Part shown: positions 5-14,117 of the stretch, in pieces | Position numbering within the stretch: position 1 is the first letter of the stretch | How the letters are laid out: each line of letters starts with the position of its first letter | DNA from: Elusimicrobiota bacterium | GTDB taxonomy: Bacteria > Elusimicrobiota > Elusimicrobia > FEN-1173 > JAKLIF01 | DNA length: 64,000 nucleotides | Assembly (NCBI GenBank): GCA_022709755.1 | Contig: JAKLIF010000003.1 | Coordinates: 29,171-93,170, forward strand | Reading direction: 5' to 3' | The notes under the pieces: generated by a model | Database searches by the model: none | What the model was told of the DNA's origin: nothing | Seen by the model: only the letters and a program-made list of their open reading frames with translations | Translations under genes and position numbers: made by a program

Positions 5-910
5 GTGGACGACGTCCGTAAACTGGTGCAGAAGGCCCTGGGGGCCCAGACCCTTTCGAAAGACGGGTTGATGACGGCGGAAAAGCCCGCCGCGTCCTCG
101 GCCTCCACGGCCGAGAAACTCCTGTCGAACGCCCAGAAAAAACCGGCGGGATCGAAGTCCGTCGGTCTGGCCGTCGGCGCGGTCGCGCTCCTGGCGTTGC
201 TGGGAGGGGGATATTTCCTATTCCAGAAAAAAGGGGGGCTCACCGTTCAGGACAAGGAATTCAGCGTCCCTTACAGGAATCCCACCGCGTTGTGTTTTGA
301 CGGCGGCGAGTCCCTCTGGGTCTCGGACTGGGTGTCATCGAGCCTCTATAAACACAAGGTGGACGACGCCATGTCCGTGTCCCAGATATTCCAGCTCCCC
401 GGCGGTCACCCCACGGGCATCGCCTGGGACGGCAGTTCCTTATGGACCTGCAATTCCTGGGAACGGAAGATCTACAAGCATACCCTGGACGCGTCCCTGA
501 GCGTCGCGGCCGAATACCCGAGCCCGGGCCCCGAACCGTCGGGATTGTATTGGGACGGCGTCAACCTGTGGGTCTGCGATTTCAAGGAAGCCAAGTTCTA
601 CCGTCTCAAGGTTTCCGAGGAAGGGTTGTCCGTCATCAATGCCTATGACAGCCCGGGTCCCCACCCCATCGGCCTGTTCTCCACGGCGGAGAACGTCTGG
701 AGCGCCGACTCGGAGACGGACATGATCTACCGACACGCCAAGGACAACACGCTCACCGTGCAGAACATCTATGTGGCCGCTCCCTACGAGGACAAGAAAC
801 TGCACTTGTCGGGACTGGGGTGGGATGGGAAATCGTTGTGGACGTGTGCCGACGAGAACGACCGGATCTACCGCCACGCGCTGAAGAACCTCAAAGAGAA
901 GAAGTTTTAA
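5..910 (+). CDS. membrane-anchored beta-propeller repeat protein (glutaminyl-cyclase-like/NHL-like blades); GTG start at window edge, possibly 5'-truncated
   Basis: Translation shows a Lys/Ala-rich N-terminus, one hydrophobic helix (VGLAVGAVALLALLGGGYFLF), then 4-5 internal ~45-aa repeats with motif P-x-G-[LI]-x-W-D-G-x-x-L-W-x-[CD]...I-Y-[RK]-H. Convergent with the next gene. Confidence 0.5.
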   Translation: MDDVRKLVQKALGAQTLSKDGLMTAEKPAASSASTAEKLLSNAQKKPAGSKSVGLAVGAVALLALLGGGYFLFQKKGGLTVQDKEFSVPYRNPTALCFDGGESLWVSDWVSSSLYKHKVDDAMSVSQIFQLPGGHPTGIAWDGSSLWTCNSWERKIYKHTLDASLSVAAEYPSPGPEPSGLYWDGVNLWVCDFKEAKFYRLKVSEEGLSVINAYDSPGPHPIGLFSTAENVWSADSETDMIYRHAKDNTLTVQNIYVAAPYEDKKLHLSGLGWDGKSLWTCADENDRIYRHALKNLKEKKF

Positions 911-975
911 ACTCCCGCCGAAAGAGATCGATCCCGGGGTCCCCCGTCCGGGGGGACCCGTCGCCGTTCCTCCGG

Positions 976-2256
976 TCAGGTCGTGAAGGTGAGACTCTGA
1001 AGGCAGGCCGTGAGGTTGTCGCTCTGATTTAATAAACCGAGTTTTTTCCGGATGTTCGAGCGGTGTTTGTCGATGGTGGGGGGCGTCGTTTCGCACAGGT
1101 CGGCGATCTCCCGGGTGGTGAGCCCGCAGCGGATCATGTTGCAGATCTGAATCTCGCGCCGGGTGAGTCTGTTCACCTTGGCGGCCATCCGGTGTCCGAA
1201 GTTGTTGGAAAGGTTCTCCAGGTTTTTCATGACCAGGTCCACCTGTTTTCCCGCGGCGGGGGTCGCCATCTGCTTGATCTTCCGCAGGGCGGGGTAGATG
1301 AACTCCTCGATGTTGATGGTGATGTCCTCCTTCAGCCGTTTCTTCTCGATCTCGATGTGTTCCAAGACCTCTCGCAGGACCGTGTTCTTCTTCTCCAGGA
1401 GAGCCGTCTGCTCCAGCAGTTTCGTCTCCGACGCCCGCAGCATCCGCTCCACTTGTTTCCGTTCGGTGATGTCGCGCGCGATGCATTGCACGCCGAACAC
1501 GTAACCGTCCTTCCGGATGGGCCTCAGTCCGAGTTCCATCAGGCGGACCCTCCCTTCCCGGGGAGAGACTTTGACTTCGACCGTGTCCAGGGGTTTCCCG
1601 TCGACCACTTCGCGGAGCTTCGCCCGGAATTCCTCGGAAGACGGGGCCGTGAAGAGGATGCTCGCCGGCTGTCCCTGCAGTGAATCCGCGGTGTATTGCG
1701 TGACGGCCTCGATCTGTTTGTTGACCGAGACGATCACCCCGTTCGGGTCGATGATGAGGATCCCGTCGCTGGCCCATTCGAAGAGGTCCCGGTATTTCTG
1801 TTCGGAGATCTCCAGTTCCTTCACCTTATCCTTCAACTGCTCGGTCAGATAGGCGTTCTCCGCCATCAGCCGGTGGGCCCGCACGGCTTTCTGGACCGGG
1901 TTGAGCAGGTCTTCGAGGCTCTCCAGGGGTTTCAGCAGGTAATCGGTGGCGTCGAGGGTCACGGCCTCCTTGGCGGTCTCGAGGCTGGCGTATCCGGTCA
2001 GCAGGATGATGGGGATGTCCTTGTCTTTTTCCCGCACCGAGGCGGTGAAGTGGATGCCGTCCATCCCGGGAAGCTTGATGTCGCAGATGATCGCGTCGTA
2101 TTTCCTCTCCCCGAACTTCCTCAGCCCGTCCTCCCCGTTGAAAGCGGGGTCCACCGCGAAACCTCTCTTCGTCAGGCGGGCCGTGAGCGCCGTCGAAAAA
2201 TCGACGTCGTCTTCCACCAGAAGAATGGTGATCATGTCTTGAGCGTTGATATCCAT
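976..2256 (-). CDS. response regulator: receiver domain + PAS domain + C-terminal LuxR-type HTH
   Basis: N-terminus ILLVEDD...DAIICDIKLPGMDG is a REC domain with a phospho-acceptor Asp. The middle is a PAS fold. The C-terminus LTRREIQICNMIRCGLTTREIADLCETTPPTIDKHRSNIRKKLG is a LuxR/FixJ HTH. AAGGAG Shine-Dalgarno 10 nt upstream. Last gene of a 6-gene minus-strand operon. Confidence 0.85.
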   Translation of the reverse strand: MDINAQDMITILLVEDDVDFSTALTARLTKRGFAVDPAFNGEDGLRKFGERKYDAIICDIKLPGMDGIHFTASVREKDKDIPIILLTGYASLETAKEAVTLDATDYLLKPLESLEDLLNPVQKAVRAHRLMAENAYLTEQLKDKVKELEISEQKYRDLFEWASDGILIIDPNGVIVSVNKQIEAVTQYTADSLQGQPASILFTAPSSEEFRAKLREVVDGKPLDTVEVKVSPREGRVRLMELGLRPIRKDGYVFGVQCIARDITERKQVERMLRASETKLLEQTALLEKKNTVLREVLEHIEIEKKRLKEDITINIEEFIYPALRKIKQMATPAAGKQVDLVMKNLENLSNNFGHRMAAKVNRLTRREIQICNMIRCGLTTREIADLCETTPPTIDKHRSNIRKKLGLLNQSDNLTACLQSLTFTT

Positions 2257-2260
2257 GTCC

Positions 2261-3631
2261 TTATGACTCCTTCTCGTGTGGAATGGTCGAACCCATCGTC
2301 CAGGGGCTCATCCGTCGCCGGACGGCCCTTCGGGACGTGAACTGGAAATAGACGTCTTCGAAAAAATTGGTCCTGGGAAAGCCGGTGATGTATTGTTTCT
2401 TGAACCGCCAGGCCATCCGCCCGATGTGGGGGATCGAATAGAACCGTTGATAGGACGTCCACACCAGATCCTCCAGTTCCCGCGCCGACATGTTCTTGAA
2501 CGCGATGACGGGATGTTCCGCGTCGTAGAGAGACCAATCCGCGGCGACGATCCTCCCCTCGTTCTTGAACTGTTCGTGGATCCGGGTGCCCGGCAGGGGC
2601 ACCAGCATGAAAATGTAGAGGAATTTGATGTCCCATCCCAGGATCGTCCCGATGGTGTCCTTGAGGGTGTCGGGCGTGTCCTGGTCCAACCCGAATATGA
2701 ACGAGGCTTGTCCCAGGATCCCGGCTTCTTTCATCCGGCGGAAGACCTCCTTGTAAGTCTCCACCTTGTTGAATCCCTTGCGGGCGGATTTCAGGGATTC
2801 CTTGTTGATGCTCTCGATCCCGACGAACGTCTCATGGCAACCCGCCCGGGCGGCGAGGTCGATCAACGCGGGGGTCCGGAGGACGGTGGTGCTCATCTGG
2901 CAGGCCCATCGGATCCGGAGGGGGATGAGGGCCGTGAACAGTTCGCGCGCGTAGGATTCGTCGGCGCAGATGTTGTCGTCGGTAAAAAAGACGAGGGAGG
3001 GTTTGAGGGCCTCGATCTCGCGCACTACGTGAGCCACCGGCTTTTTCCGGATCTCGTTGCCGAGGAACGGATGCACCGAACAGAAACCGCAGGTGTTGGG
3101 ACATCCCCGCGTGGTCTGAAGCGGGAGGCACGGCGTCCGGGCGAACGGGGGGATGAGGTATCGGGAATAGTCCAACAGGTCGAACCGCGGGATGACCAAC
3201 CGGGAGAGGTCCGGCCGTCGCGGAGAGGAATAGATCTTCTTCAGCCGGCCGTCGCGGGCGTCCCGCAGGACCTCTTCCCAGAGGTCTTCCGCTTCGCCGA
3301 TCATCACCGAATCGAAATGGGTCAGCGCCTCGTCGGAACAGAAGGCGGCGTGGATCCCTCCCAGGATGGTCTTCTTCCCTCGACGGCGGAACTCATCGGC
3401 GATCTGGTAGGCGCGCGGCGCGTGGAACGTCATGGCGGTCAACCCCACCAGGTCCACGGGTTCGTCGTAGTCGATCTCCTCGATGTAGTCCACGGTGATC
3501 TTCACGTCCACCTCGGGCGGGGTGAGCGCCGCCACCGTCGGGAGCGAGAGAGACGGCATGAAGAGTTCCGAATAACGGACTCGCGTCCCGTCGGGATTCA
3601 GATGAGCCGGTTGGATCAGTCTAACGCGCAT
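2261..3631 (-). CDS. B12-binding radical SAM protein (class B radical SAM, methyltransferase-like)
   Basis: N-terminal cobalamin-binding-like domain followed by the radical SAM cluster motif CPNTCGFC (CxxxCxxC). Start overlaps the upstream kinase stop by 11 nt; 4-nt gap to the downstream regulator. Confidence 0.85.
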   Translation of the reverse strand: MRVRLIQPAHLNPDGTRVRYSELFMPSLSLPTVAALTPPEVDVKITVDYIEEIDYDEPVDLVGLTAMTFHAPRAYQIADEFRRRGKKTILGGIHAAFCSDEALTHFDSVMIGEAEDLWEEVLRDARDGRLKKIYSSPRRPDLSRLVIPRFDLLDYSRYLIPPFARTPCLPLQTTRGCPNTCGFCSVHPFLGNEIRKKPVAHVVREIEALKPSLVFFTDDNICADESYARELFTALIPLRIRWACQMSTTVLRTPALIDLAARAGCHETFVGIESINKESLKSARKGFNKVETYKEVFRRMKEAGILGQASFIFGLDQDTPDTLKDTIGTILGWDIKFLYIFMLVPLPGTRIHEQFKNEGRIVAADWSLYDAEHPVIAFKNMSARELEDLVWTSYQRFYSIPHIGRMAWRFKKQYITGFPRTNFFEDVYFQFTSRRAVRRRMSPWTMGSTIPHEKES

Positions 3632-5249
3632 GTTGGTTCTCCTGAATGGGGATGCGGAGCGTGAACGTCGCCCCTTTCTCCGGATTGTTCCTTACCTGGA
3701 TATCTCCTTGAAAGCGCTTGATGAGGTTGTAGCTGATGGCCAGTCCGAGCCCGGTCCCCTGCCCCGCGGGTTTGGTGGTGAAGAACGGGTCGAAGATCTT
3801 GTTCATCACGTCCGGCGGTATTCCCGGCCCCGTGTCAGAGATGTCGATGAAGATGTTCGTCCCGTCGTGGCGGGACGTGATGGTGATGGTTCCCTCGTCG
3901 CCGATCGCGTCCACCGCGTTCATCAGGATGTTCATCATCACCTGCTCGATCTGCAATTGGTCGATTTGCAGCGGGGGGAGGTCCCGGCTGAGTTCGTCGC
4001 GCAGCACTATTTGGGGGCCGGGCAGGGAATCCTTCGTCTTATGGACGACGGAGTCCAGGATGGTGTTCATGTCGATCTGTTTCAGGTTCTTCGAATCCCG
4101 CGAGAACGTGAGCAGGTCCGCCACGATGTTCTTGCATCGCCCGGTCGCCTTCTCCGCCCGTTTCAGGCGGTCCCACCGGGGGTCTGTCTCCGGCGTGTCT
4201 TCCAGGACGTCCTGCAGGTAGTTCCGGATGGCCCCGACGGGATTGTTGATCTCGTGGGCCATGCCCGCCGCCAGGCGCCCGACGGACGCCATCTTCTCGG
4301 ATTGGATGAGTTCCTTCTGGCTGTTCTGGAGCTCTTCCAGTGTGCGCCTCAGGTCGAGGTTGCTCTTCTTGAGTTCCTCGGTCCTCTGCACGATCTTCTC
4401 CTGTAATTCGATGTTCATCTTCTCGATGGTTTCCATCGCTTCCATCAGGTTCGCCGTCTCCCGCTGGTTGGCGCTCGTGGTGTCCGCCAGGATGAGCCTG
4501 TTGTCGATGAACCGCCCGGTGATGTATCCGAGGAGGACGAACAGTGTCAACGTGATATAGGAGTGGGAGAGGTCCCATCGGTGGAGGATCAGGTAGAGGA
4601 GGAGGGCGACGGCGGCGCCGACCAGGCCCAGCCATTGGGTGGGGCGGTTCGTCCATTCGACGTGATAGACGCAGTCGGACCCGCCCGTTTCGGCGGCACA
4701 GACGGTCTCGCGGATCTTGGCCTGGGGAAGTCTCAGGAGGGTCGGCACGGCCGCGAAGATCCCCTGCATGTTGAGGCAGTTGTTCCTGTCTTGGCGGTAT
4801 TCCGGATAATAATGGGAGGTGATGGTGCAGCTGGTCCGTTTGAGCTGGGTGACCCTCGTCTCTCCGATCTTGCTGAACCGTGGGGACACGAGTTCGATGA
4901 GTTTGAACGCCGTTCGCGGCGTCGCCAGTTGGACGATGACGTCGGACAGCGCGCCGTAACTCTTTCCGCGCGAGGAATACGTGCCGGCGAGATAGGCGGC
5001 GTTGGGGTCTCCCGTGAATTCGACCAGCTTGGCCAACAGCCGCCGGAAATAGTCGAAACTGATCCAATTGTTGGGGTTCTTGAGATAGTCGAGGTTCATC
5101 CCGGTGTCGCGGATGAGTTCACGCATCGCCTTTTCTCCCCGCGTGTCTTCGAGATACAGGAGTATGCAATGGGTGGTCCGGCAACTGAGCTCCACTTTCG
5201 TGTCGTTGGGGTCCACCTTCGAGAGGGGGATGTTCTGGACGTCAGTCAT
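3621..5249 (-). CDS. sensor histidine kinase with a ~190-aa N-terminal domain of unknown type, two TM helices, coiled coil, HisKA and HATPase_c
   Basis: H-box ASVGRLAAGMAHEINNP. N/G1/G2 boxes NILMNAVDA ... DTGPGIP ... GTGLGLAISY. TM segments WLGLVGAAVALLLYLIL and ITLTLFVLLGYITG. Start overlaps the upstream gene end by 8 nt. Confidence 0.85.
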   Translation of the reverse strand: MTDVQNIPLSKVDPNDTKVELSCRTTHCILLYLEDTRGEKAMRELIRDTGMNLDYLKNPNNWISFDYFRRLLAKLVEFTGDPNAAYLAGTYSSRGKSYGALSDVIVQLATPRTAFKLIELVSPRFSKIGETRVTQLKRTSCTITSHYYPEYRQDRNNCLNMQGIFAAVPTLLRLPQAKIRETVCAAETGGSDCVYHVEWTNRPTQWLGLVGAAVALLLYLILHRWDLSHSYITLTLFVLLGYITGRFIDNRLILADTTSANQRETANLMEAMETIEKMNIELQEKIVQRTEELKKSNLDLRRTLEELQNSQKELIQSEKMASVGRLAAGMAHEINNPVGAIRNYLQDVLEDTPETDPRWDRLKRAEKATGRCKNIVADLLTFSRDSKNLKQIDMNTILDSVVHKTKDSLPGPQIVLRDELSRDLPPLQIDQLQIEQVMMNILMNAVDAIGDEGTITITSRHDGTNIFIDISDTGPGIPPDVMNKIFDPFFTTKPAGQGTGLGLAISYNLIKRFQGDIQVRNNPEKGATFTLRIPIQENQHAR

Positions 5250-6387
5250 GGGCGGTCTCCGGATCGGTCTTGAACACCCGCTTGGGCGGGGTGTTGTCCT
5301 GGGGCGTCATCGCGTCGAAGATCCTCGGGACGAACAGGTGGAACAGCGGGTTCCGGTGTTTCATATACATGTGGAGTGTGACGACTTCCGCCCCGATCTC
5401 TTTTTTCGGTTCCAGCGTGGTGATGCCCAGGTCGATGTCGCGCATGTCGCGTTCACCGGCCAACGCGATGATGTTGTAGAACAGGTTGAAGTAGAGACAA
5501 TAATCCTCATTGAGACTGTAATCCAGACCGCAGAACAGCGGGATGAGCGTCTCATCGTCGAAGAGCAGAAGAGAGAATGCGACGGGCCGGTCCCCTTTCT
5601 TGACGAGAAGGACCGACGACCGGCCGTTCAAACACTGCCGGATGTTCATGAAAAAATCCTTCGTCAGGCGCTCCCGTTTGTATTCCCGGGCCTGGTCATA
5701 CACGTTGAACCAGAGCCGTTCCAGGTCGGCCGCGTGGGGGGTGAAATCCTCCACCACCTGGACCGTGACGTCGTCGCGTTGGAACTTCCGCTTCCGGAGG
5801 GAGATCTCTTTCCGGTATCGTTTGCGCAGACTGTCGAGATACTGGTCGAAAGTCTTCCATGTCACGTCGATCCGCGTACCGGGCAGGTTGTGGATGCGCC
5901 GGTATCCGAAAGAGAGCAGACTGTCGTAAAAGGGGAGTTCCCTGTCGAGGAAATCGCGGAAGAGGATGACGTTGATCCCTTCTCGTTCGGCGATCCCCTC
6001 GATCGCGGCGCGCAACGCCCCGAGAGCCGCCGCGCGGTCCGTCCCCTCCCGGAACGAGAAGGTCGATCCCAAGGCGACGGGGGTGCCGCATTCCAACGAC
6101 CGTAATATCAGGAAGTCCGGCCAGAAGCGGCGCACCCGACCGATCGCCTTTTTCAGAACGCCCGTGGCGAACAGGTCGAGTTCCGTGCTGATGGTGTAGG
6201 CGCAGGTGTGCGCGACGAGCCGGCCCCCTTCGTAGGCCGCGGGATAGAAGAAACGGCAGTCGTTGATCCCGGACCTCTCGATGGCGGAGGGATACTCATG
6301 GGTGCATATCAGCCGGTTGGGGCCGACGATCCCGTTCCAATCATCCTTCGGCACCGCCTCGATCGTCGTGTGGACCTTGATTTCCAT
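5242..6387 (-). CDS. FemAB-like / BioF2-like GNAT-fold acyltransferase (Acetyltransf_6-like)
   Basis: Internal ATG (MEIKVHTTIEAV...) of the 779-aa track ORF. The upstream 398 codons are Arg/Gly/Pro-rich nonsense overlapping the real AOS gene. The ~380-aa product resembles the FemAB/BioF2-like acyltransferase family that often neighbours alpha-oxoamine synthases. 23-nt gap to the upstream gene. Confidence 0.6.
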   Translation of the reverse strand: MEIKVHTTIEAVPKDDWNGIVGPNRLICTHEYPSAIERSGINDCRFFYPAAYEGGRLVAHTCAYTISTELDLFATGVLKKAIGRVRRFWPDFLILRSLECGTPVALGSTFSFREGTDRAAALGALRAAIEGIAEREGINVILFRDFLDRELPFYDSLLSFGYRRIHNLPGTRIDVTWKTFDQYLDSLRKRYRKEISLRKRKFQRDDVTVQVVEDFTPHAADLERLWFNVYDQAREYKRERLTKDFFMNIRQCLNGRSSVLLVKKGDRPVAFSLLLFDDETLIPLFCGLDYSLNEDYCLYFNLFYNIIALAGERDMRDIDLGITTLEPKKEIGAEVVTLHMYMKHRNPLFHLFVPRIFDAMTPQDNTPPKRVFKTDPETAHD

Positions 6388-6407
6388 CGGTATCCGGAGA
6401 CCGCTCC

Positions 6408-7736
6408 TCAGGCGGCGTGTAGCAAGCCGTGCTCCAGGCCGGCTTTTCTCATCACGTCGAGCGTTCTGTCCAGGTCGTCGCGCGTGTGGGTGGCCATGAC
6501 GCTGAACCGGAAACAGCATTTCTCCAGAGGCACGGCCGGGTAGGGCACGGCATTGACGAAGACGCCCCCTTCGTGGATCTCGCGGCTCATCTGTCTCAGT
6601 TTGACGTTGTCGCCGATCGTGATGATCAGGATGGCGGATTCCGGCGGGGAGGGGAACACGGTGTACCCCATCGCCTTCAGGTTGTCGTGCAGGTATCGGG
6701 TGTTCTCCCACAATTGTTTCCGTCGTTCGGGTTCCTCCTCCATGACCTGGAGGGCGGCCAGCGCCGTGGCCACGACAGCCGGCGTGATGCCCGCCGAGAA
6801 CATGTAGGACCTGGCGTAATAGCGGATGTAATGGACGGCCTCCTTGTTCCCGGCCACGAAACCGCCGGTGCACCCCAACGATTTGCTGAAGGTCCCCATC
6901 ACCAGGTCCACTTGTCCTTCCAGGTGGAAATGGTCGGTGGTCCCGCCCCCGTGGGATCCCAGGACGCCCGTGGCGTGGGCGTCGTCCACCAGCACGCGCG
7001 CACCGTAGAGCCGGGCCAGCCGCACGATCTCGGGCAGGGGCGCCAGGTCGCCGTCCATGCTGAAGACGCCGTCCACCACCACCAATTTCCCCATGAATTT
7101 GTGGCGGCATCGCTGAAGCAGTGTCTCCAGATGGCCCATGTCGTTGTGTCGGAACGCCCGGAAGTTCCCTCCGGACAGCCGGCATCCGTCGATGATGCTG
7201 GCGTGGTCCCACCGGTCCATCAGGGCCACGTCTTTGGACCGGATCAGGGCCGAGACGCTCCCCACGTTGGCCGAATACCCGGTCGAGAACACCATGGCGT
7301 CCTCGCAACTCTTCAGCCGGGCCAGGCGGACTTCCAGTTCCCGCACCAGGTCGCAGAGACCGTTCATGTGGGGCGCCCCGCAGAGGCCGCTCCCGTATTT
7401 GGCCAGGGCCTTCTGCCCAGCCTCGATCACCTTGGGGTGCGTGCTCAACCCGAGATAGTTGTTGGACCCCATCATGATCATCTCGCGCGGACGGTCCGTG
7501 AGGTTGTCGAGCACCGTGACGCGGTTGCGGCAGGCCGACAGGAGCCGTCGGAGATAGAAATGCGTTTTCTTCCTCTTCCAATCCTCGATGAACGCGTAAT
7601 AGGACCGGGCCTTGGCGAAAAGGTCCGGATCGTCCTGTTCCACGAAATCGGCCATGGTGTAATGGTCCGAATCGATGGCCCCCTCATCAACAAGAAGCTT
7701 GTGCGGCGCGACATACGAACTGGCAGTGAGTGTCAT
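6408..7736 (-). CDS. PLP-dependent alpha-oxoamine synthase family acyltransferase (BioF / serine palmitoyltransferase / CqsA-like)
   Basis: Aminotransferase class I/II fold with the PLP-lysine motif GTFSKSLG, and the SNNYLGL and VDDAHATG motifs typical of the AOS family. Start chosen at MTLTASS, which has an AAGGAG SD 7 nt upstream. The N-terminal 17 codons of the track ORF were rejected. Confidence 0.85.
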   Translation of the reverse strand: MTLTASSYVAPHKLLVDEGAIDSDHYTMADFVEQDDPDLFAKARSYYAFIEDWKRKKTHFYLRRLLSACRNRVTVLDNLTDRPREMIMMGSNNYLGLSTHPKVIEAGQKALAKYGSGLCGAPHMNGLCDLVRELEVRLARLKSCEDAMVFSTGYSANVGSVSALIRSKDVALMDRWDHASIIDGCRLSGGNFRAFRHNDMGHLETLLQRCRHKFMGKLVVVDGVFSMDGDLAPLPEIVRLARLYGARVLVDDAHATGVLGSHGGGTTDHFHLEGQVDLVMGTFSKSLGCTGGFVAGNKEAVHYIRYYARSYMFSAGITPAVVATALAALQVMEEEPERRKQLWENTRYLHDNLKAMGYTVFPSPPESAILIITIGDNVKLRQMSREIHEGGVFVNAVPYPAVPLEKCCFRFSVMATHTRDDLDRTLDVMRKAGLEHGLLHAA

Positions 7737-7805
7737 GGATAGCTCCTTTCCGTCGATCGTCGTGCTCGGGCCGATTCCGTGGATCAAAAGGCGTGTGTCC
7801 CCGGA

Positions 7806-9065
7806 CTAGAAACGATAGGTCACACCCACCGAAAGGGCCGTGCCGAAATCGTCATACGTTCCGTCGATGCTGGATGAACTGATGGTCTCGTTGTTGTCCA
7901 CGTTGTTGTTCACGTGCACCGTCTTGTAGAAGACGAATTGAAGGGCGGTGTCGATGGTGATGGGACCGCGGGTGTATCCCAACCCCGTGGTCAAAAACTG
8001 GCCGACGGTGTCCTGCAGGCTGGGCCGCCAATGTTCCTCGGGCGCGGCCGGCTGGTTATAGATGTAACCGGCCCTCAGGCGGAGTGGGTCGTTGAGTTTA
8101 TATTCCGCGCCGAGCTTATAGGCGATCGTGTCCCTGTAACCGTATTTGAATGTGGTCGGGGCCAGGGTCGGGTCCTGGTAGTGGACGGTCAGTTTGTCCA
8201 AAGTGCTCCAGTCGGTCCAATCCAGGTTGAATTCGAATTTCCAACGGTCGCCGGGCGTGACGGCATAACCCAACACGACCACGGCCGGATAGGCGATGGA
8301 AGTCTTGGCCTCGCATTTGGACGACGCATTCGCGGGGGGGATCTCCGTGAACGTGGCGTCCCCCTTATACTTCACCGTGAACGGGCTTTTGAACGTGGCA
8401 GCCAGGGTTTGCCGCTCATCGAGCTTATAGGTGGCCCCGGCATTGTAACCCCAGGCGTTCCCATCGGCCGAGAGTTCGCTTCCACCGTCCCATGGAACCG
8501 GAAGGCCATACATCGTGGCGTAGTCGACCTTGCTCTTAAGTTCGGCGGTCGAATGGTAATAGCTGATCCCCACGCCGGCGGAGAACCTGTCCGAGACTTT
8601 CCAGGCCAGGGAGGGATTGACGTCCACCAGGACCAGGTTGGAATAGGTGGTCACATAACGGGCAAACCCCGTTCCGCTCCATTCGCTGGAGATCCCGTTC
8701 GGGACGGTGATTCCGAGTCCCCAACCCCAGGGCCGGTCGGCGCGACGGCCTGTCAGGTAGAAGGCCGGGACGCCCTGCCATTTTTCCAGGTTGCTTTCTT
8801 CCACGCCGGTGGGGCTGGTGCGTTTGAACCATCCGTTCATGATGGAATACTGGCCGGAAACCTGGGTCCCTTCCAGGTTCGTCAATCCCGCCGGATTGAA
8901 GGCGATGGTGGACGGGTCATCGGCCTGGGCGATGAAGGCTTCACCCATGGCGATGGCCTTGGCGCTCTTGACTCCCAGTATCTTGAACCCGTTCGCGGCG
9001 GCGTTGCTCACGAACAACGAACCGCAACAGACGGCTAAAATGATGGATCGGATGGTTTTGAACAT
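7806..9065 (-). CDS. outer-membrane FadL/TodX/OmpP1-family hydrophobic-compound channel
   Basis: Signal peptide MFKTIRSIILAVCCGSLFVSNAAA. N-terminal hatch motif AIAMGEAFIAQADDPSTIAFNPAGL (the NPA motif). Beta-strand-rich, Gly/Tyr-rich sequence ending in an aromatic residue (F). AAGGAG SD upstream. First gene of the operon. Confidence 0.8.
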   Translation of the reverse strand: MFKTIRSIILAVCCGSLFVSNAAANGFKILGVKSAKAIAMGEAFIAQADDPSTIAFNPAGLTNLEGTQVSGQYSIMNGWFKRTSPTGVEESNLEKWQGVPAFYLTGRRADRPWGWGLGITVPNGISSEWSGTGFARYVTTYSNLVLVDVNPSLAWKVSDRFSAGVGISYYHSTAELKSKVDYATMYGLPVPWDGGSELSADGNAWGYNAGATYKLDERQTLAATFKSPFTVKYKGDATFTEIPPANASSKCEAKTSIAYPAVVVLGYAVTPGDRWKFEFNLDWTDWSTLDKLTVHYQDPTLAPTTFKYGYRDTIAYKLGAEYKLNDPLRLRAGYIYNQPAAPEEHWRPSLQDTVGQFLTTGLGYTRGPITIDTALQFVFYKTVHVNNNVDNNETISSSSIDGTYDDFGTALSVGVTYRF

Positions 9066-9094
9066 GAAGATATTTCTCCTTTTTTATATTAAAT

Positions 9095-9111
9095 AACGCA
9101 TTGAATGCGTT
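9095..9111. promoter_or_regulatory. perfect palindrome AACGCATT-g-AATGCGTT followed by a T-run, in the 5' leader of the FadL-like operon; candidate operator
   Basis: Read directly from the sequence. The half-site AATGCG recurs at ~9144 and ~9299 as AATGCGGAA. The region 9066-9460 is ~33% GC versus ~63% for the window. Confidence 0.35.
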
Positions 9112-9483
9112 TTTTTATCACTCAAATCACTTCTTGGACAAAAAATGCGGAACATTTTATACCCAATCGGAAGAACGTGGTGATTTTCATATCCCAATAC
9201 CAGTAAGTTTATCTCCAGATCCGGGTTTTGTCAACTGGAAGAAAGTATGTAGAAAATAGGTACGAAAACTACCAGTTGTAAACCAAAATATGCATTATAA
9301 TGCGGAATTAGCGGTTTTATGGTGATTTTTTGATACTGGAAATTCATATACTCATTTTTCGCCAGAAAACTTCGGATTGTTTTTTTATAGGATTCAATGT
9401 AAATATAGGGTATGGAACATGTGCTGTTCTAACAAGTGAATGAGACCATTTGAACAACTATGAGTTCCGGGGAAAGGACAGAC

Positions 9484-10644
9484 ATGCCGACACCGATCCG
9501 CGTGTTGATTGCCATCGATGTTTCCGACGACGCCCAGTGGCTGCTCGATGAACTTCGTTGCGGGGGCTACTCGCCGGTGTGGAAATGCGTCGTCTCGCTG
9601 GAAGAACTGGGCGATGCTCTCCTGTCGAAACCGTGGGATGTGGTGGTGGCGGATTATTCCACATCGAGTTTCACCGGGCTGGACGTGTTCAACCTGGTCC
9701 GCAAGAGGGGCTTGGATATCCCCGTCATCATCATATCGGACCCCGTGGGGGACATGGACGCGGCCGAGCTCCTCCGCCTGGGCATAGCGGATTTTCTCAT
9801 CAAGGGCCACCTGGAACGGTTGGTCCCCGTGATTGAACGCGAACTCCGCCGCGAGGGGGTCAAGAAAGAGCTGAACGACCTGCGGAGAGAGATGAGGGCG
9901 AAAAGCGAGCAACTCTATCAGGCGAACAAAGTGAGATTTCTGGGCCATCTGGCCGGGGGGATGGCTCACGATTTCAACAACCTGCTCACGGCGATCATCG
10001 GTTACACCGACGTCGTCCTGCAGGATTTAAAAACCGGGAAAGTGAATCGGGAAGATGTGGAGGGGATCCGTCTGGCGGCCCAAAAGTCGGCCGTGTTGAG
10101 CCGCCAGCTGTTGGTGTTCAATCCCCGTCATTCGACGGAACCGCGCCCCGTGGACGTGAACCAATTCGTCACGGACATGGAGAAGATGTTCCAGCGGCTG
10201 ATCGGGGACGGTATCCGACTGGAGCTGGGTTTGGACGCCCACCTCCATCCGGCGGTCGTCGATCCCGTGCATCTGGGGCAGATCCTCTTCAGCTTGGCGG
10301 TCAGCGCCATGGAATCCATGCCCGAGGGAGGGCGCCTCATCATCGAGACGGCCAATGCCCGGTTGGAAGCCATGACCCTCCCTTCGGGAGAGGAGGTCCG
10401 TCCGGGGGACTACGTTCTCCTGGCGGTCAGCGACACCGGTCCGGGGATGGACGCTCATACCCAGTCCCGGCTGTTCAATCCGGCGTTGTCGTCTCCTCCG
10501 GAAGACCATCCCCCGGGGTTGGACACGGCGTACCGCATCGTCAGGCAGAACGCGGGATACATCACGATCTACAGCGAGTTGGGCCGGGGAAAGACCGTCA
10601 AGGTCCATCTGCCCCGGAGTCCGGAACAGTCCGAGAAAGATTGA
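9484..10644 (+). CDS. cytoplasmic hybrid histidine kinase: N-terminal receiver domain + HisKA + HATPase_c
   Basis: REC domain VLIAIDVSDD...VVVADY. H-box FLGHLAGGMAHDFNN. ATPase region SDTGPGMD...GLDTAYRIV...GRGKTVKVHLP. No TM segments. Second ATG chosen because GGAAAGGA sits just upstream. Confidence 0.75.
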   Translation: MPTPIRVLIAIDVSDDAQWLLDELRCGGYSPVWKCVVSLEELGDALLSKPWDVVVADYSTSSFTGLDVFNLVRKRGLDIPVIIISDPVGDMDAAELLRLGIADFLIKGHLERLVPVIERELRREGVKKELNDLRREMRAKSEQLYQANKVRFLGHLAGGMAHDFNNLLTAIIGYTDVVLQDLKTGKVNREDVEGIRLAAQKSAVLSRQLLVFNPRHSTEPRPVDVNQFVTDMEKMFQRLIGDGIRLELGLDAHLHPAVVDPVHLGQILFSLAVSAMESMPEGGRLIIETANARLEAMTLPSGEEVRPGDYVLLAVSDTGPGMDAHTQSRLFNPALSSPPEDHPPGLDTAYRIVRQNAGYITIYSELGRGKTVKVHLPRSPEQSEKD

Positions 10645-10974: not shown

Positions 10975-12294
10975 TTACCAAACCTCGTCGAGGAAGGAGA
11001 GCGATTTCTGACACCACTTGTCCACGAAGACCTTGCGGTTGGTCTCCCGGCACCGGTCGTAGTCGGTGTCGGAATACCCCGTCCCTCCTTCGTGATGGAT
11101 GTAGACGTCTTCGATGAGCAGGAGTTTGAACCCCGCCTGCCTCACTCGCAAGGCGTAGTCGTAATCTTCGTAACCCCCGGGCCCGAACCGTTCGTCCAGA
11201 AGGCCCACCAGTTCGATGACGTTCCGTTTGATGAGCAGGCAGAACCCGTCCAGCCGGGGAACGGACAGCCGTCCTCCCTCGTGTTGGCGGGCCCATCGGT
11301 CGGCGAAGGCATCCAGGTTCCTGAGGGATTTATAGGGGATGGGAGCCACTTTCTGGGCGCCCACCGCGCCGTTGGTGTGCGGTCCGGCCATCCCGGCTTT
11401 GGGGTCCACTTTCATCCGGCGGATCATGCGTTCCAGCCAGCGCGCGGTGACCACGGTGTCGGCGTTGAGCAGCATGATGAACCGGCCGTGGGCGGCGCGG
11501 ATGCCCTGGTTACAGGCCGCGGCGAAAAACTTGTTCTGCGGGTTGTGGATCACGGTCACGTCTTTCACTGATTTAAGGAACTCGGTGGACTTGTCGGTGG
11601 TGCCGTTGTCCACGACGATGATCTCGTAAGGGACGTTGGTGTGTTTCCGGATGCTCTCGAGGCAAGCCCCCAGATAGCGGCCGTCGTTGTGCGTGGGGAT
11701 GATGATGCTGGTCAGATCCGCTTTGGGTGTCAGGGTGTTCTTTTTGAAAGTGTGGGTGCCGATGGCCTTGAACTGGTCGTTGAGCCACGGCCCGATCTTT
11801 GAGACGTCGGAAGGGACCACGGCGGGGGTGATGTGGGGGTCCACGCGGGCGGTCAGCGCATCGCCGTCCCGTTCGGAGCGGGTCCAGACGGCATCGGCCG
11901 TCTGAAGGATCTCCGACCACATCTCGCGTTGACGCAGTCCGTCGGTGGTGCCGGTGAGGTCCCTGAGGAACTCCATGTCCGGCAGAAAGCAGACGAGGGA
12001 CTGGTCGGCCCCGGCCAACTGGCGGAGGGGGAAAAAGTAGCGGTTGATGGCCGCACTGTCCAGAAAAAGGACGGCGGTCAGCGGGGTGTTGGTGAGGATG
12101 GTTTTGGCTGTCTGAAGGAACGAATCGACGTTTCCGTGGGGACTTGGGTGGATGGTCAGAGTGGCTGACGGTGGAACCGTGGGTTTCTCTGAGAGCAGGT
12201 GCAACGACCAACCGGACGAGAGGGCTTTATCGAGACCGCCGGTTTGAGTGTCGCCGGGCCATTCGGACGCGACGAGGAGCAAGTTTTGAGTCAT
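10975..12294 (-). CDS. family 2 glycosyltransferase with an N-terminal domain of unknown function
   Basis: C-terminal half carries the GT2 signature IIIPTHNDGRYLGACLESI...IIVVDNGTTD...DAD-like LLNADTVV ... DYDYALR. Confidence 0.8.
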   Translation of the reverse strand: MTQNLLLVASEWPGDTQTGGLDKALSSGWSLHLLSEKPTVPPSATLTIHPSPHGNVDSFLQTAKTILTNTPLTAVLFLDSAAINRYFFPLRQLAGADQSLVCFLPDMEFLRDLTGTTDGLRQREMWSEILQTADAVWTRSERDGDALTARVDPHITPAVVPSDVSKIGPWLNDQFKAIGTHTFKKNTLTPKADLTSIIIPTHNDGRYLGACLESIRKHTNVPYEIIVVDNGTTDKSTEFLKSVKDVTVIHNPQNKFFAAACNQGIRAAHGRFIMLLNADTVVTARWLERMIRRMKVDPKAGMAGPHTNGAVGAQKVAPIPYKSLRNLDAFADRWARQHEGGRLSVPRLDGFCLLIKRNVIELVGLLDERFGPGGYEDYDYALRVRQAGFKLLLIEDVYIHHEGGTGYSDTDYDRCRETNRKVFVDKWCQKSLSFLDEVW

Positions 12295-12611
12295 GGGGTG
12301 ATTCTATGTTTTTTTGCCCTAAAACGGAAACGTTCCTCATCTCATGAGTGTGAGGACGGTCAAGGCCGCTTGGTCACCCTGAAGCGATGAGCAAGGGATT
12401 TAGGTGGGGATGTGAGTGGGAGAGAGTGGTTAACCTTCTTGGGTATACCGCTGCACTCGACGCCCTGCAAGGAGTAGGAGACGGAACATGGGGGTAAAAT
12501 ATAAAGAGGCAGGTTGTTTCTTGAGTAGGTTTAAAAATTGTTTTTGAGATAGAAAATATATTTTAACAGAAGTAAAAAATACCCAATATTTTGAATGGAG
12601 GAGATAAACTA

Positions 12612-13898
12612 ATGATAAATCCTGAACAAGGTTTTACCTCGGGAGTGATTCGTGAGGCAGATCGTTTTGTTGGTCGCTATGAAGATATTCGTGATTGTAT
12701 TAAAGCAATTAATACGGAGTTGGGACTCGTGGCTGTTTACGGTAAACGAGGTGTTGGAAAGTCTTCAATTCTGAGGCAAATACAACACATGGCACTTGGT
12801 GATTATGGGTTGTCAAAAAAATCAGGACTTGAAAGGGAAATTCCTACGCGCCCTCGAACCTATCTAACAGTGTATTATACTTGTGATTCAATGATTAGAT
12901 CGGGGCAGGATCTTCTCCAGCGGTTATGTAACGATCAGGATCCTGAGGACGGGTTGCTTCGCCTCGTTCCAAATGACGGAAAAGAAATTGTTGAGTTTGC
13001 GAGAACGAAGGAGGTTTCTTTGGGTGCAGATCTAAAAGTTGTTAATTGGGGATCAAAGGGAATCGAATCTTCAAAATATGCCCGAATAATTCCTAACGAT
13101 ATAGTCCAAACATTCCGTAATATGGTTAATGCTATTGTTATACATCAGGTCGAAAAACGAATGAAACGTGACGGTCTCTTAGTATTGCTGGATGAGTTTG
13201 ACGTCATAAAAGATAAAGCAGGATTGGGTTCACTTATAAAGTCATTGAGTAGTGAAAAGGTTAAATTTGGTGTTTGTGGTATTGGTCGGGATTTGACGGA
13301 TTTGGTTAATGATCATGCTTCAATAGAAAGGTTATTGGAGGAAGGGGCTATTCATGTGAAGCCTATGGCTGAAATGGAACTTGAACGCATTATTACTAGA
13401 GCTGAAGAATTGTTCAAGGGCGCTCTTAGTTTCTCCTCAACTGTAAAGGCTAGAATCGCAAAGCTCTCTCAAGGGTATCCCTATCTCGTTCAGTTGTTTG
13501 GAAAGGAATGTGTGGCTGTGGCCAATAAGACATCCGTAAATGAAATTGATGACCATGTGTTTGACATGGTAATAGAGGATATTCAATCCGGTCGGGCGTT
13601 TCCGACGCTTGAGGCTATGTATCAAAAGGCAATTGGTGGTTCTACAGATCGACAGAAATTACTTTGGTTGCTTGCCGAGCATAAAGAAGAGGCCCCTCTT
13701 TATCAGGACGAGTCAGGGCGCATACAACTAAAGAAAGTTCGAACAGATGCTGACGTTTTTGATATACCTTACGTTGACCAACTGCTTCCTCGGTTGATTG
13801 ATGCAAATTATGGGCCGATTCTGTATCGTGAAAAACAGGGTGTTTACGAATTTCTCAATCCTGTATTTCGAGTTTACGTCACTCTTCGCAATATCTAG
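12612..13898 (+). CDS. P-loop NTPase of the archaeal-type ATPase (Arch_ATPase/ORC-Cdc6-like AAA) family; low-GC, probably horizontally acquired
   Basis: FVGRYEDIRDCIKAINTELGLVAVYGKRGVGKSSIL matches the FVGR-x-E-L-x-L...GxRRxGKT N-terminal signature. Walker B is LLVLLDEFD. ~40% GC versus ~63% surroundings. GGAGGAG SD 8 nt upstream of the ATG. The track ORF begins at an upstream TTG. Confidence 0.75.
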   Translation: MINPEQGFTSGVIREADRFVGRYEDIRDCIKAINTELGLVAVYGKRGVGKSSILRQIQHMALGDYGLSKKSGLEREIPTRPRTYLTVYYTCDSMIRSGQDLLQRLCNDQDPEDGLLRLVPNDGKEIVEFARTKEVSLGADLKVVNWGSKGIESSKYARIIPNDIVQTFRNMVNAIVIHQVEKRMKRDGLLVLLDEFDVIKDKAGLGSLIKSLSSEKVKFGVCGIGRDLTDLVNDHASIERLLEEGAIHVKPMAEMELERIITRAEELFKGALSFSSTVKARIAKLSQGYPYLVQLFGKECVAVANKTSVNEIDDHVFDMVIEDIQSGRAFPTLEAMYQKAIGGSTDRQKLLWLLAEHKEEAPLYQDESGRIQLKKVRTDADVFDIPYVDQLLPRLIDANYGPILYREKQGVYEFLNPVFRVYVTLRNI

Positions 13899-14117
13899 TT
13901 GCTTTTTAGTTTATTATGTATGGGCGGGATTGGTTGATGTTTATCTTCTTAATATTTATAAAAAACGATTCCGATCTTGTGTGTAAAAGGATGGGTAACT
14001 AATATAGCGAATGATGCCACAAAAAGAATAATACTTTGATATGCAATCCCCGCTCCTTGTTTATGTTCAACGTCGGCCCTCATTTACTTTCCCAATCCTG
14101 ACTGATAGAATAGCTCC

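Follow-up and report, generated by a model that had tools for sequence, protein, structure and literature searches.

In the cqsA-cqsS locus of Vibrio and the lqsA-lqsR-hdeD-lqsS locus of Legionella, an enzyme of the alpha-oxoamine synthase (AOS) family is encoded beside a sensor histidine kinase, and in the case of Lqs also beside a response regulator, and makes a lipophilic signal derived from an aminoketone, the making and the sensing being thus joined in one locus. The layout of AOS, sensor kinase and regulator, which is that of cqsA-cqsS and lqsA-lqsR-lqsS, is also that of a cluster of six genes at positions 976-9065 of the DNA considered here, a stretch of 64,000 nucleotides (the window) from contig JAKLIF010000003.1 (positions 29,171 to 93,170 of the forward strand, assembly GCA_022709755.1) of an Elusimicrobiota bacterium. 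The core of this cluster, formed by an AOS, a tandem-GNAT transferase and a sensor kinase, recurs in distant phyla, and the reading that we prefer, to which we would give an even chance, is that the cell makes a hydrophobic N-substituted alpha-aminoketone and senses it via the dedicated kinase, in a conserved make-and-sense module.

The initial annotation of the window had likened the cluster to the Cqs and Lqs circuits, and the likeness holds for the logic of the circuit and not for the enzyme family, because the AOS resembles the serine palmitoyltransferases (SPTs) and lies far from CqsA (323 against 123 bits). The linkage of AOS and kinase, as in Cqs/Lqs-type loci, holds in all 27 cassette loci where the flanking DNA suffices. 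In contrast, the cassette adds an obligatory tandem-GNAT transferase, its sensor is a predicted cytoplasmic H-NOX/VirS-like domain with a transmembrane hairpin, whereas CqsS and LqsS are multi-pass membrane sensors, its output is a LuxR/GerE regulator, and its optional B12-dependent radical S-adenosylmethionine (SAM) enzyme and FadL channel have no Cqs/Lqs counterpart.

The second system to be compared is bacterial ceramide synthesis (Spt, bCerS and CerR in Caulobacter, Bacteroidota and others), the genes of which are often clustered, and in which an SPT-type AOS acts first and an N-acyltransferase of the cytoplasm then modifies the 3-keto long-chain base (PMC11087976, PMC11334938). The cassette differs in that CerR, acyl carrier protein (ACP) or acyl-ACP synthetase, and Lpt-type transport genes were not found in it, in its invariant sensor kinase, and in an AOS that scores below three SPT equivalog cut-offs. 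With respect to H-NOX/HnoK and the VirS- or XylR/DmpR-type sensors, the cassette domain is fused to the kinase and tethered to the membrane instead of being a separate protein and, unlike in H-NOX/HnoK, it has no conserved proximal histidine. No description of the cassette or of its sensor family was found in the searchable literature, which is not proof of absence.

The six genes, and the parts of the kinase to which we return below, are as follows:

7806-9065, minus strand: FadL/OmpP1/TodX-family outer-membrane channel with an N-terminal signal peptide (PF03349; accessory)
6408-7736, minus strand: SPT-like AOS dependent on pyridoxal phosphate (PLP) (PF00155; core)
5242-6387, minus strand: tandem-GNAT protein (FemAB_like / BioF2-like Acetyltransf_6), putative N-acyl- or N-aminoacyl-transferase (core)
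3621-5249, minus strand: sensor histidine kinase with N-terminal sensor, predicted transmembrane hairpin, coiled coil, HisKA and HATPase_c (Pfam; core)
4641-5249, minus strand: kinase residues 1-203, heme-less H-NOX/VirS-like sensor domain with a putative metal site (Cys158, Glu181, Cys184, Cys193)
4500-4637, minus strand: kinase residues ~205-250, two hydrophobic segments with a very short loop, predicted membrane hairpin
2261-3631, minus strand: cobalamin-binding (class B) radical-SAM enzyme, putative tailoring step (PF02310 and PF04055; accessory)
976-2256, minus strand: REC-PAS-LuxR/GerE response regulator, presumed output of the kinase (Pfam)

The coordinates confirm what had been said of these genes, that all six lie on the minus strand with overlaps or gaps of at most 69 nt, and the six domain calls were all reproduced with Pfam and NCBIfam; as a whole, the earlier interpretation is partly supported.

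Conservation of the Cassette

Homologues of the GNAT number more than 100 at 43-63% identity, many of them on contigs shared with AOS homologues, and three neighborhoods inspected directly showed the same gene set in a slightly shuffled order. When a single genome of each GTDB species was scanned, 35 loci were obtained, all in metagenome-assembled genomes (MAGs), of which 34 are non-redundant; the open reading frames (ORFs) of each locus were labelled by phmmer using the six window proteins as queries. In 27 of these 34 the three core genes stand side by side, the kinase being one whose N-terminal domain is homologous to that of the window kinase. The AOS was found in 20 of the 24 loci with sufficient upstream DNA, every miss being an orphan GNAT, and the kinase stands immediately downstream of the GNAT in 22 of the 29 with sufficient downstream DNA, the other seven being again orphan GNATs; in other words, cassette loci with enough flank always have the AOS upstream and, right after the GNAT, a kinase with the homologous N-terminal 200 residues. 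The carriers, besides the Elusimicrobiota of the window, are Omnitrophota, Planctomycetia, Verrucomicrobiota, Lentisphaerota, Kiritimatiellia, Desantisbacteria, Spirochaetota, Neomarinimicrobiota and Desulfobacteraceae, and because the gene order recurs in unrelated phyla, the arrangement is more than chance.

The accessory genes are less constant: FadL is present in 9 of the 16 cassette loci with enough upstream DNA, and at least one B12 radical-SAM gene in 7 of 15, with zero to two paralogues per cassette. The cluster had been described as a six-gene unit, and this description stands for AOS, GNAT and kinase, which form the core, while FadL, the B12 radical-SAM enzyme and the REC-PAS-LuxR regulator are lineage-variable accessories. 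The pairwise identities of AOS, GNAT and sensor domain co-vary (r = 0.60-0.71, Mantel p <= 5e-4, n = 21 loci), which fits their inheritance as a module, with a contribution from shared species history.

In an Omnitrophota MAG the AOS and the GNAT are fused in a single ORF of 1010 residues (L029:1827-4859), with a FadL gene before it and the sensor kinase after it. A fusion of this type is also known from Mycobacterium tuberculosis, where BioF2 (Rv0032) joins an Acetyltransf_6 "BioF2-like" GNAT domain to an AOS domain; we know of no kinase linked to BioF2.

The output of the cassettes varies in its intermediate steps and shares a LuxR-type endpoint. The REC-PAS-GerE regulator is used in the window and in Planctomycetia, Omnitrophota and Desantisbacteria, with orthologues of the same architecture in L002, L003, L007, L010, L013 and L015, while in the cassettes of Verrucomicrobiota and Lentisphaerota the sensor kinase is followed by a REC-HisKA_3-HATPase relay and this by REC-GerE. 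In one protein of 1067 residues (P0269), an H-NOX-like sensor kinase is joined to REC-PAS-HisKA_3-HATPase, a fusion which suggests that the separate adjacent genes of the Verrucomicrobiota and Lentisphaerota cassettes form one relay. In the Spirochaetota cassettes (L025:11201-14524, L030:11229-14639) the sensor kinase is present in two tandem copies, each with its own H-NOX-like domain.

The seven orphan GNATs (L016, L018-L022, L024) stand in unrelated contexts, in which no recurrent partner gene was found.

The Synthase and the Question of a Membrane Lipid

The AOS protein (PF00155, Aminotran_1_2, 197 bits) belongs to the alpha-oxoamine synthase superfamily of PLP fold-type I, that of BioF, KBL, SPT, ALAS and CqsA, and bears its catalytic motifs: DHAS (177), DDAH (251) and TFSK (282-285) with the PLP lysine K285. 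Among PDB sequences its best match is the SPT of Sphingobacterium (3a2b/8guh, 323 bits), followed by the Sphingomonas SPT and Thermus BioF/KBL (~270 bits), KBL (241), cysteate acyltransferase CapB (217), BioF (~195), ALAS (182) and CqsA (123). It falls below every NCBIfam equivalog cut-off, both those of the SPTs (409.5 bits for a cut-off of 640 in NF047600, CFB; 354.8 for 500 in NF047599, beta-proteobacterial; 313.7 for 670 in NF047603, alpha-proteobacterial) and that of the autoinducer synthases CqsA/LqsA (218.2 for 428 in NF005526). It forms a distinct clade, most like the SPTs that use long-chain acyl groups. The idea that it could be a BioF of biotin synthesis is ruled out by the equivalog cut-off (TIGR00858, 373.8 bits for 426.45) together with a conserved neighborhood that is not that of biotin. 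The initial annotation had named, as what would refute it, a firm grouping with the BioF orthologues and no conserved linkage to the neighbors; the AOS stays below the BioF cut-off and its linkage to the neighbors is strongly conserved, and the interpretation is not refuted on this ground.

Many relatives of the AOS at 51-55% identity (P0153, P0164, P0176, P0211 and others, Thermodesulfobacteriota included) carry an N-terminal PilZ domain, which binds cyclic di-GMP. In one of these loci (L046:7001-8635, neighbors to 14563) the genes that come after the PilZ-AOS encode an NAD-dependent epimerase/3-beta-HSD-type reductase, a histidine kinase with a GAF domain and a hybrid kinase, and GGDEF and HD-GYP-type genes lie upstream. 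Other relatives (52-54% identity; L045:5778-8296, L047:3346-8299), in MAGs labelled Betaproteobacteria and Bacillota, lie next to MpsC-CheW-MCP chemotaxis genes, in divergent orientation, with a TonB-dependent receptor nearby.

The resemblance to SPT gives rise to the most serious of the alternative explanations, not considered in the initial annotation and less probable in our view than the make-and-sense module, namely that the AOS and the GNAT are the equivalents of Spt and the bacterial ceramide synthase and make an (oxo-)ceramide-like or 1-deoxy-ceramide-like membrane lipid and no signal molecule; on similarly limited likelihood, the radical-SAM enzyme would methylate this lipid, FadL would help to place it in the outer membrane, and the two-component system would tune the supply to the state of the envelope. 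The nearest solved structures are indeed bacterial SPTs (323 and ~270 bits), as is the nearest NCBIfam model, SPT-CFB; in Caulobacter, Spt and then bCerS act in the cytoplasm in the same order (PMC11087976); Spt-like genes are widespread in anaerobic phyla, Planctomycetota and Verrucomicrobiota among them, and need not be clustered with CerR and bCerS (PMC11334938); and the best models for the radical-SAM enzyme include the lipid enzymes HpnJ and HpnR and a ladderane-type radical-SAM enzyme. It is the SPT-like AOS and the enzyme order of Spt and bCerS that keep a ceramide-like envelope lipid under feedback control a serious rival.

However, the AOS lies under all the SPT equivalog cut-offs, and the gene tables of the cassette show none of the further components that such a lipid would call for: no CerR-type reductase (Epimerase or NAD-binding families) is present in those of L001-L004, in a search at the level of the locus for genes whose clustering is not obligatory, nor any head-group enzyme or Lpt paralogue or Lpt-like transporter in the same four. 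According to a preprint (10.64898/2026.04.12.717747), sphingolipid transport in Caulobacter runs via LptC/F/G paralogues. Moreover, lineages differ in their tailoring enzymes, and the kinase equals the enzymes in conservation and is coupled to the GNAT at the level of translation, which would be unusual for a pathway of bulk lipid.

The Transferase and Its Donor

The second enzyme matches FemAB_like (54.8 bits) and Acetyltransf_6 (44.9 bits) in Pfam, has no match among PDB sequences and gives with NCBIfam a 0.0012 match to TIGR03019 and nothing else. Its predicted model is confident (predicted local distance difference test, pLDDT, 92) and has the tandem-GNAT fold of the Fem and other aminoacyl-tRNA-dependent transferases, with 10-16% identity to the Fem-type matches. 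The [RQ]xxGx[GA] motif for binding the pyrophosphate of CoA is absent, which is merely suggestive as to the donor, and the group transferred may be either a fatty acyl or an aminoacyl group.

If the latter, the signal would take another form, in which the GNAT uses aminoacyl-tRNA and yields an N-aminoacyl-aminoketone able to cyclise to a molecule of the pyrazinone type, sensed by the kinase or by the PAS-LuxR regulator. There is precedent for such chemistry, as 3,5-dimethylpyrazin-2-ol (DPO) and AI-3-type pyrazinones derive from aminoketones and aminoacyl donors, and the receptor of DPO, VqmA, consists of PAS and LuxR helix-turn-helix domains. The closest structural relatives of the GNAT use aminoacyl-tRNA, the missing CoA motif is in keeping with this, and for GNATs of the PF13480/COG3146 type that belong to the argolaphos cluster a role as peptide aminoacyl-tRNA ligases has been proposed (PMC8976061). 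We nevertheless consider this variant improbable: an SPT-like AOS and a FadL channel indicate a long-chain lipid, similarity of fold at 10-16% identity does not fix the donor, and the PAS-GerE part of the regulator has no specific VqmA match in the PDB. The proposal of a VqmA-like receptor was for its part rejected, the search of the PDB having given generic PAS and GerE matches only.

More distant GNATs (~25% identity), on plasmids of Roseomonas, Agrobacterium, Rhizobium, Nostoc and Xylella, were considered and set aside as not belonging to the same system, since a class-III aminotransferase replaces the AOS; the neighboring kinase of Roseomonas has the catalytic core alone in common with that of the window. 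The FemAB_like GNATs of the Roseomonas and Agrobacterium plasmids (L041, L043) and of the Nostoc plasmid (L042) lie in other clusters of amine-lipid-like type. In Alphaproteobacteria the neighboring genes encode a HAD-IB phosphatase, a class-III aminotransferase, a protein of the arginase family, an alpha/beta hydrolase and EamA transporters, along with a two-component pair; in Nostoc they encode a class-III aminotransferase, a desaturase and a glycosyltransferase, along with the DevBCA exporter.

The Sensor Kinase

Behind the two enzymes stands a kinase with HisKA and HATPase_c domains, the N-terminal region of which had been put forward in the initial annotation as a candidate ligand sensor; it is in fact a domain of ligand-sensor type, with the H-NOX/VirS fold. 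Its Pfam matches are sub-threshold throughout (Arabinose_bd in 12 of 26 members, V4R in 15 of 26), and by sequence it forms a distinct family. An exhaustive phmmer search with this region gave 913 cluster representatives, in which the domain is nearly always N-terminal on kinases, and, because the same domain precedes GGDEF and class-III cyclase domains elsewhere, it can be taken as a genuine input module. The model built from 41 sequences (pLDDT 95.4) has an H-NOX-type fold, shared with the sensors of hydrophobic ligands H-NOX, VirS and PoxR/DmpR, and VirS is reported to bind a small-molecule drug directly (PMC13234193).

In H-NOX an absolutely conserved proximal histidine ligates the heme (PMC7108781). 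No column of the alignment of the 41 family members reaches 30% His, and with no histidine conserved, the binding of heme by this domain is very unlikely. What is invariant in the 41 sequences is C158, P175, C184 and C193; at position 181, 28 of them have E, 12 have H and one has D. The spacing of this putative metal site, C158-x22-E181-x2-C184-x8-C193, is to be compared with the C-x21-[H/Q]-x2-C-x7-C of the Cys3-His/Gln zinc site of Shewanella and Vibrio H-NOX, whose ligands in Shewanella are C139, H161, C164 and C172 (PMC7108781).

The Kyte-Doolittle hydropathy exceeds 1.6 at residues 212-218, a second segment, SYITLTLFVLLGYITGRFI, is weaker, and the same two hydrophobic segments are found in the homologues. 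Two segments separated by a very short loop would leave the sensor and the catalytic core both in the cytoplasm, at the surface of the membrane. With the sensor domain on that side, the "move" part of the make, move and sense circuit originally proposed, and with it signaling between cells, remain matters of inference.

The cysteines allow another interpretation, in which the Cys3 plus Glu/His site would be a thiol-based sensor of oxidants, like the heme-free H-NOX of Vibrio cholerae, and the product of the pathway would not be sensed; equally doubtful is its corollary, that oxidation would turn on in these anaerobes the synthesis of a protective or adaptive lipid. The three invariant Cys and the E/H/D at 181 do have a spacing like that of the Shewanella zinc site, the heme-free H-NOX responds reversibly to oxidation at its zinc site (PMC7108781), and the carriers belong mostly to anaerobic lineages. 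Even so, we hold this interpretation to be unlikely, firstly, because it leaves unexplained why this type of sensor is tied to AOS and GNAT across phyla, and also because the good conservation of the helical half of the domain suggests that a pocket has been maintained. Besides, the zinc site is structural in many H-NOX proteins, and structural also in V4R proteins such as PoxR.

A Proposed Make-and-Sense Module

The make-and-sense module starts from what is observed, that is, the arrangement of the genes, the assignments of domains and folds, the linkage of AOS, GNAT and kinase across phyla and their co-inheritance. In this organism the SPT-like AOS would join an amino acid and a fatty acyl thioester into a long-chain alpha-aminoketone, the free amine of which would be capped by the tandem-GNAT with a second group, acyl or aminoacyl, and the product could then be tailored by the one B12 radical-SAM enzyme. 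The product, or a close intermediate, would be bound in the pocket of the cytoplasmic heme-less H-NOX/VirS-like domain of the kinase, tethered to the inner membrane, and the kinase would phosphorylate the REC-PAS-LuxR regulator, leading to transcription of targets that probably include the AT-rich promoter of the operon itself. The hydrophobic compound could cross the outer membrane via the FadL-type channel, in such a way that the product of neighboring cells would be readable too; in Sinorhizobium, FadL is required for the uptake of long-chain acyl-homoserine lactones.

Such a module is the best explanation because a kinase of the hydrophobic-ligand type is conserved, and translationally coupled, behind an enzyme that would form an aminoketone and another that would cap its amine. 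A signal is favored over a bulk lipid because the tailoring enzymes vary by lineage (zero to two radical-SAM paralogues; an FkbM methyltransferase in L002), a variation that suits signals bearing specificity; because the gene tables of L001-L004 lack a CerR-type reductase and an Lpt-like transporter; and because close relatives of the AOS (52-54% identity) adjoin other signaling genes, both the PilZ-AOS with its kinases and those beside MpsC-CheW-MCP. A more specific version, which we put forward tentatively and rate below the module itself, is that the AOS-GNAT pair makes lipid-like autoinducers of a new class, namely N-acyl- or N-aminoacyl-aminoketones or products of their cyclisation, which would be diversified by the B12 radical-SAM enzymes and detected by a receptor of a new type, the membrane-tethered kinase with its heme-less H-NOX pocket.

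Several points weigh on the other side. Every carrier of the cassette is an uncultured genome; the AOS is nearest to true serine palmitoyltransferases, and the pairing of an AOS with an N-acyltransferase also makes up the first half of ceramide synthesis in bacteria; FadL is missing from 7 of 16 cassettes, and seven orphan GNAT genes (~45% identity) are found without the partner genes. The mirror-tree correlation may also stem from shared species history. A sensor that faces the cytoplasm could serve the homeostasis of the product and not communication, and the Cys3 metal site could act as a redox switch, whether in place of the sensing of a ligand or in addition to it (PMC7108781). Finally, the search for a conserved operator in the DNA upstream of the cassettes revealed none, and inverted repeats of the 7-N7-7 type are not enriched (5 against 2.8 +/- 1.6 in shuffles, with at least 5 in 49 of 300 shuffles). 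Palindromes of TACAT type in L002, L010 and L015 are an unproven lead.

If the make-and-sense module is correct, it would join Cqs and Lqs as a third AOS-based signaling architecture, one that combines an SPT-like synthase with a Fem-like transferase. It would also provide the first functional context for two large families, the COG3146/FemAB_like GNATs and the ~900 clusters of heme-less H-NOX-like input domains, and would open a way to study chemical communication, or the homeostasis of lipids, in phyla with almost no cultured members. If the autoinducer version were to hold, it would give Omnitrophota, the Planctomycetota/Verrucomicrobiota/Lentisphaerota group, Elusimicrobiota and their relatives a first proposed chemistry of cell-cell signaling. 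If, on the other hand, the lipid explanation is the true one, the cassette would still represent a ceramide-like pathway of a new kind, one that lacks the reductase and carries its own sensor.

Accessory Proteins

The FadL protein matches PF03349 (Toluene_X) with 216 bits over residues 20-419, corresponding to profile positions 6-421 of 421, and has a hydrophobic N-terminus, from which it is assigned as a full-length FadL/OmpP1/TodX barrel with a predicted signal peptide.

The radical-SAM protein is classed as a class B (cobalamin-dependent) enzyme, given its matches to PF02310 (B12-binding, 45.2 bits, cut-off 32.1) and PF04055 (Radical_SAM, 61 bits, cut-off 29.5) and the motif C177xxxC181xxC184. 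Its best NCBIfam models, BchE (112.7 bits for a cut-off of 481) and HpnJ (105 for 578), are far from being satisfied, and the methylases PhpK and HpnR, at ~70 bits each, are also far below cut-off. The earlier label of C-methylase type is not established by this comparison, as BchE and HpnJ are not methylases and all scores are far too low; the protein belongs to no characterised subfamily, and "methylase" would be a guess. In one Planctomycetia cassette (L002:10829-11608) an FkbM-type (Methyltransf_21) SAM methyltransferase lies between the kinase and the radical-SAM gene, as a lineage-specific tailoring enzyme.

The regulator, with Response_reg (PF00072, 90.9 bits), GerE (PF00196, 38.7 bits) and a PAS domain between them, belongs to the NarL/FixJ class of response regulators.

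Operon Layout and Transcription

The gaps are of 69 nt between FadL and AOS, 20 nt between AOS and GNAT and 4 nt between the radical-SAM gene and the regulator, while GNAT and kinase overlap by 8 nt and kinase and radical-SAM gene by 11 nt. The AOS starts at TTG 7787 (459 aa) according to JGI as against ATG 7736 (442 aa) according to NCBI, and the radical-SAM protein is shorter in the JGI call (432 aa), the 456-aa form being favored because its orthologues span 450-456 aa. Upstream of the operon lie two further features:

9066-9459, minus strand: predicted AT-rich promoter and leader region of the operon (G+C content, promoter-like matches)
9460-10644, plus strand, divergent: REC-HisKA-HATPase protein, possible relay partner, membership uncertain (Pfam)

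The ATG of FadL at 9065 is preceded by an AGGAG ribosome-binding site, and the 350 nt upstream of this start have a G+C content of ~33%. All four sigma-70-like matches across 700-9600 fall in the 9066-9459 spacer, the best being TTGACA-17-TAAACT at 9234-9206; terminator-like matches in a scan of the operon region do not exceed the expectation from shuffles (9 against 7.6 +/- 3.3), and the downstream gene at 5-910 (plus strand) is convergent with the operon. As promoter matches are confined to the spacer, terminators are at background and the downstream gene is convergent, the co-transcription of the six genes is a reasonable inference.

The leader contains a perfect 7-3-7 palindrome, AACGCATTGAATGCGTT, at 9095-9111, ~30 nt upstream of the FadL start codon and followed on the plus strand by a T-run, which could be an operator or an RNA hairpin. 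The idea that the leader or the operon contains a riboswitch, or an RNA element of another kind, was dropped, as a search of both against Rfam gave zero matches at E <= 1.

Neighboring Regions

Further two-component genes are found on both flanks of the operon, at 9460-10644 and at 5-910, both on the plus strand; the latter encodes a REC-only protein (408 residues), and a further kinase lies past the edge of the window (L001:16786-18216). At 12000-14000 of the window the G+C content is 0.39-0.48, a sharp fall from the ~0.60 of the flanks that is accompanied by a strong positive GC skew, and this region, which may be a foreign insertion, contains an ORF at 12591-13898, the JGI-called product of which is without a Pfam match.

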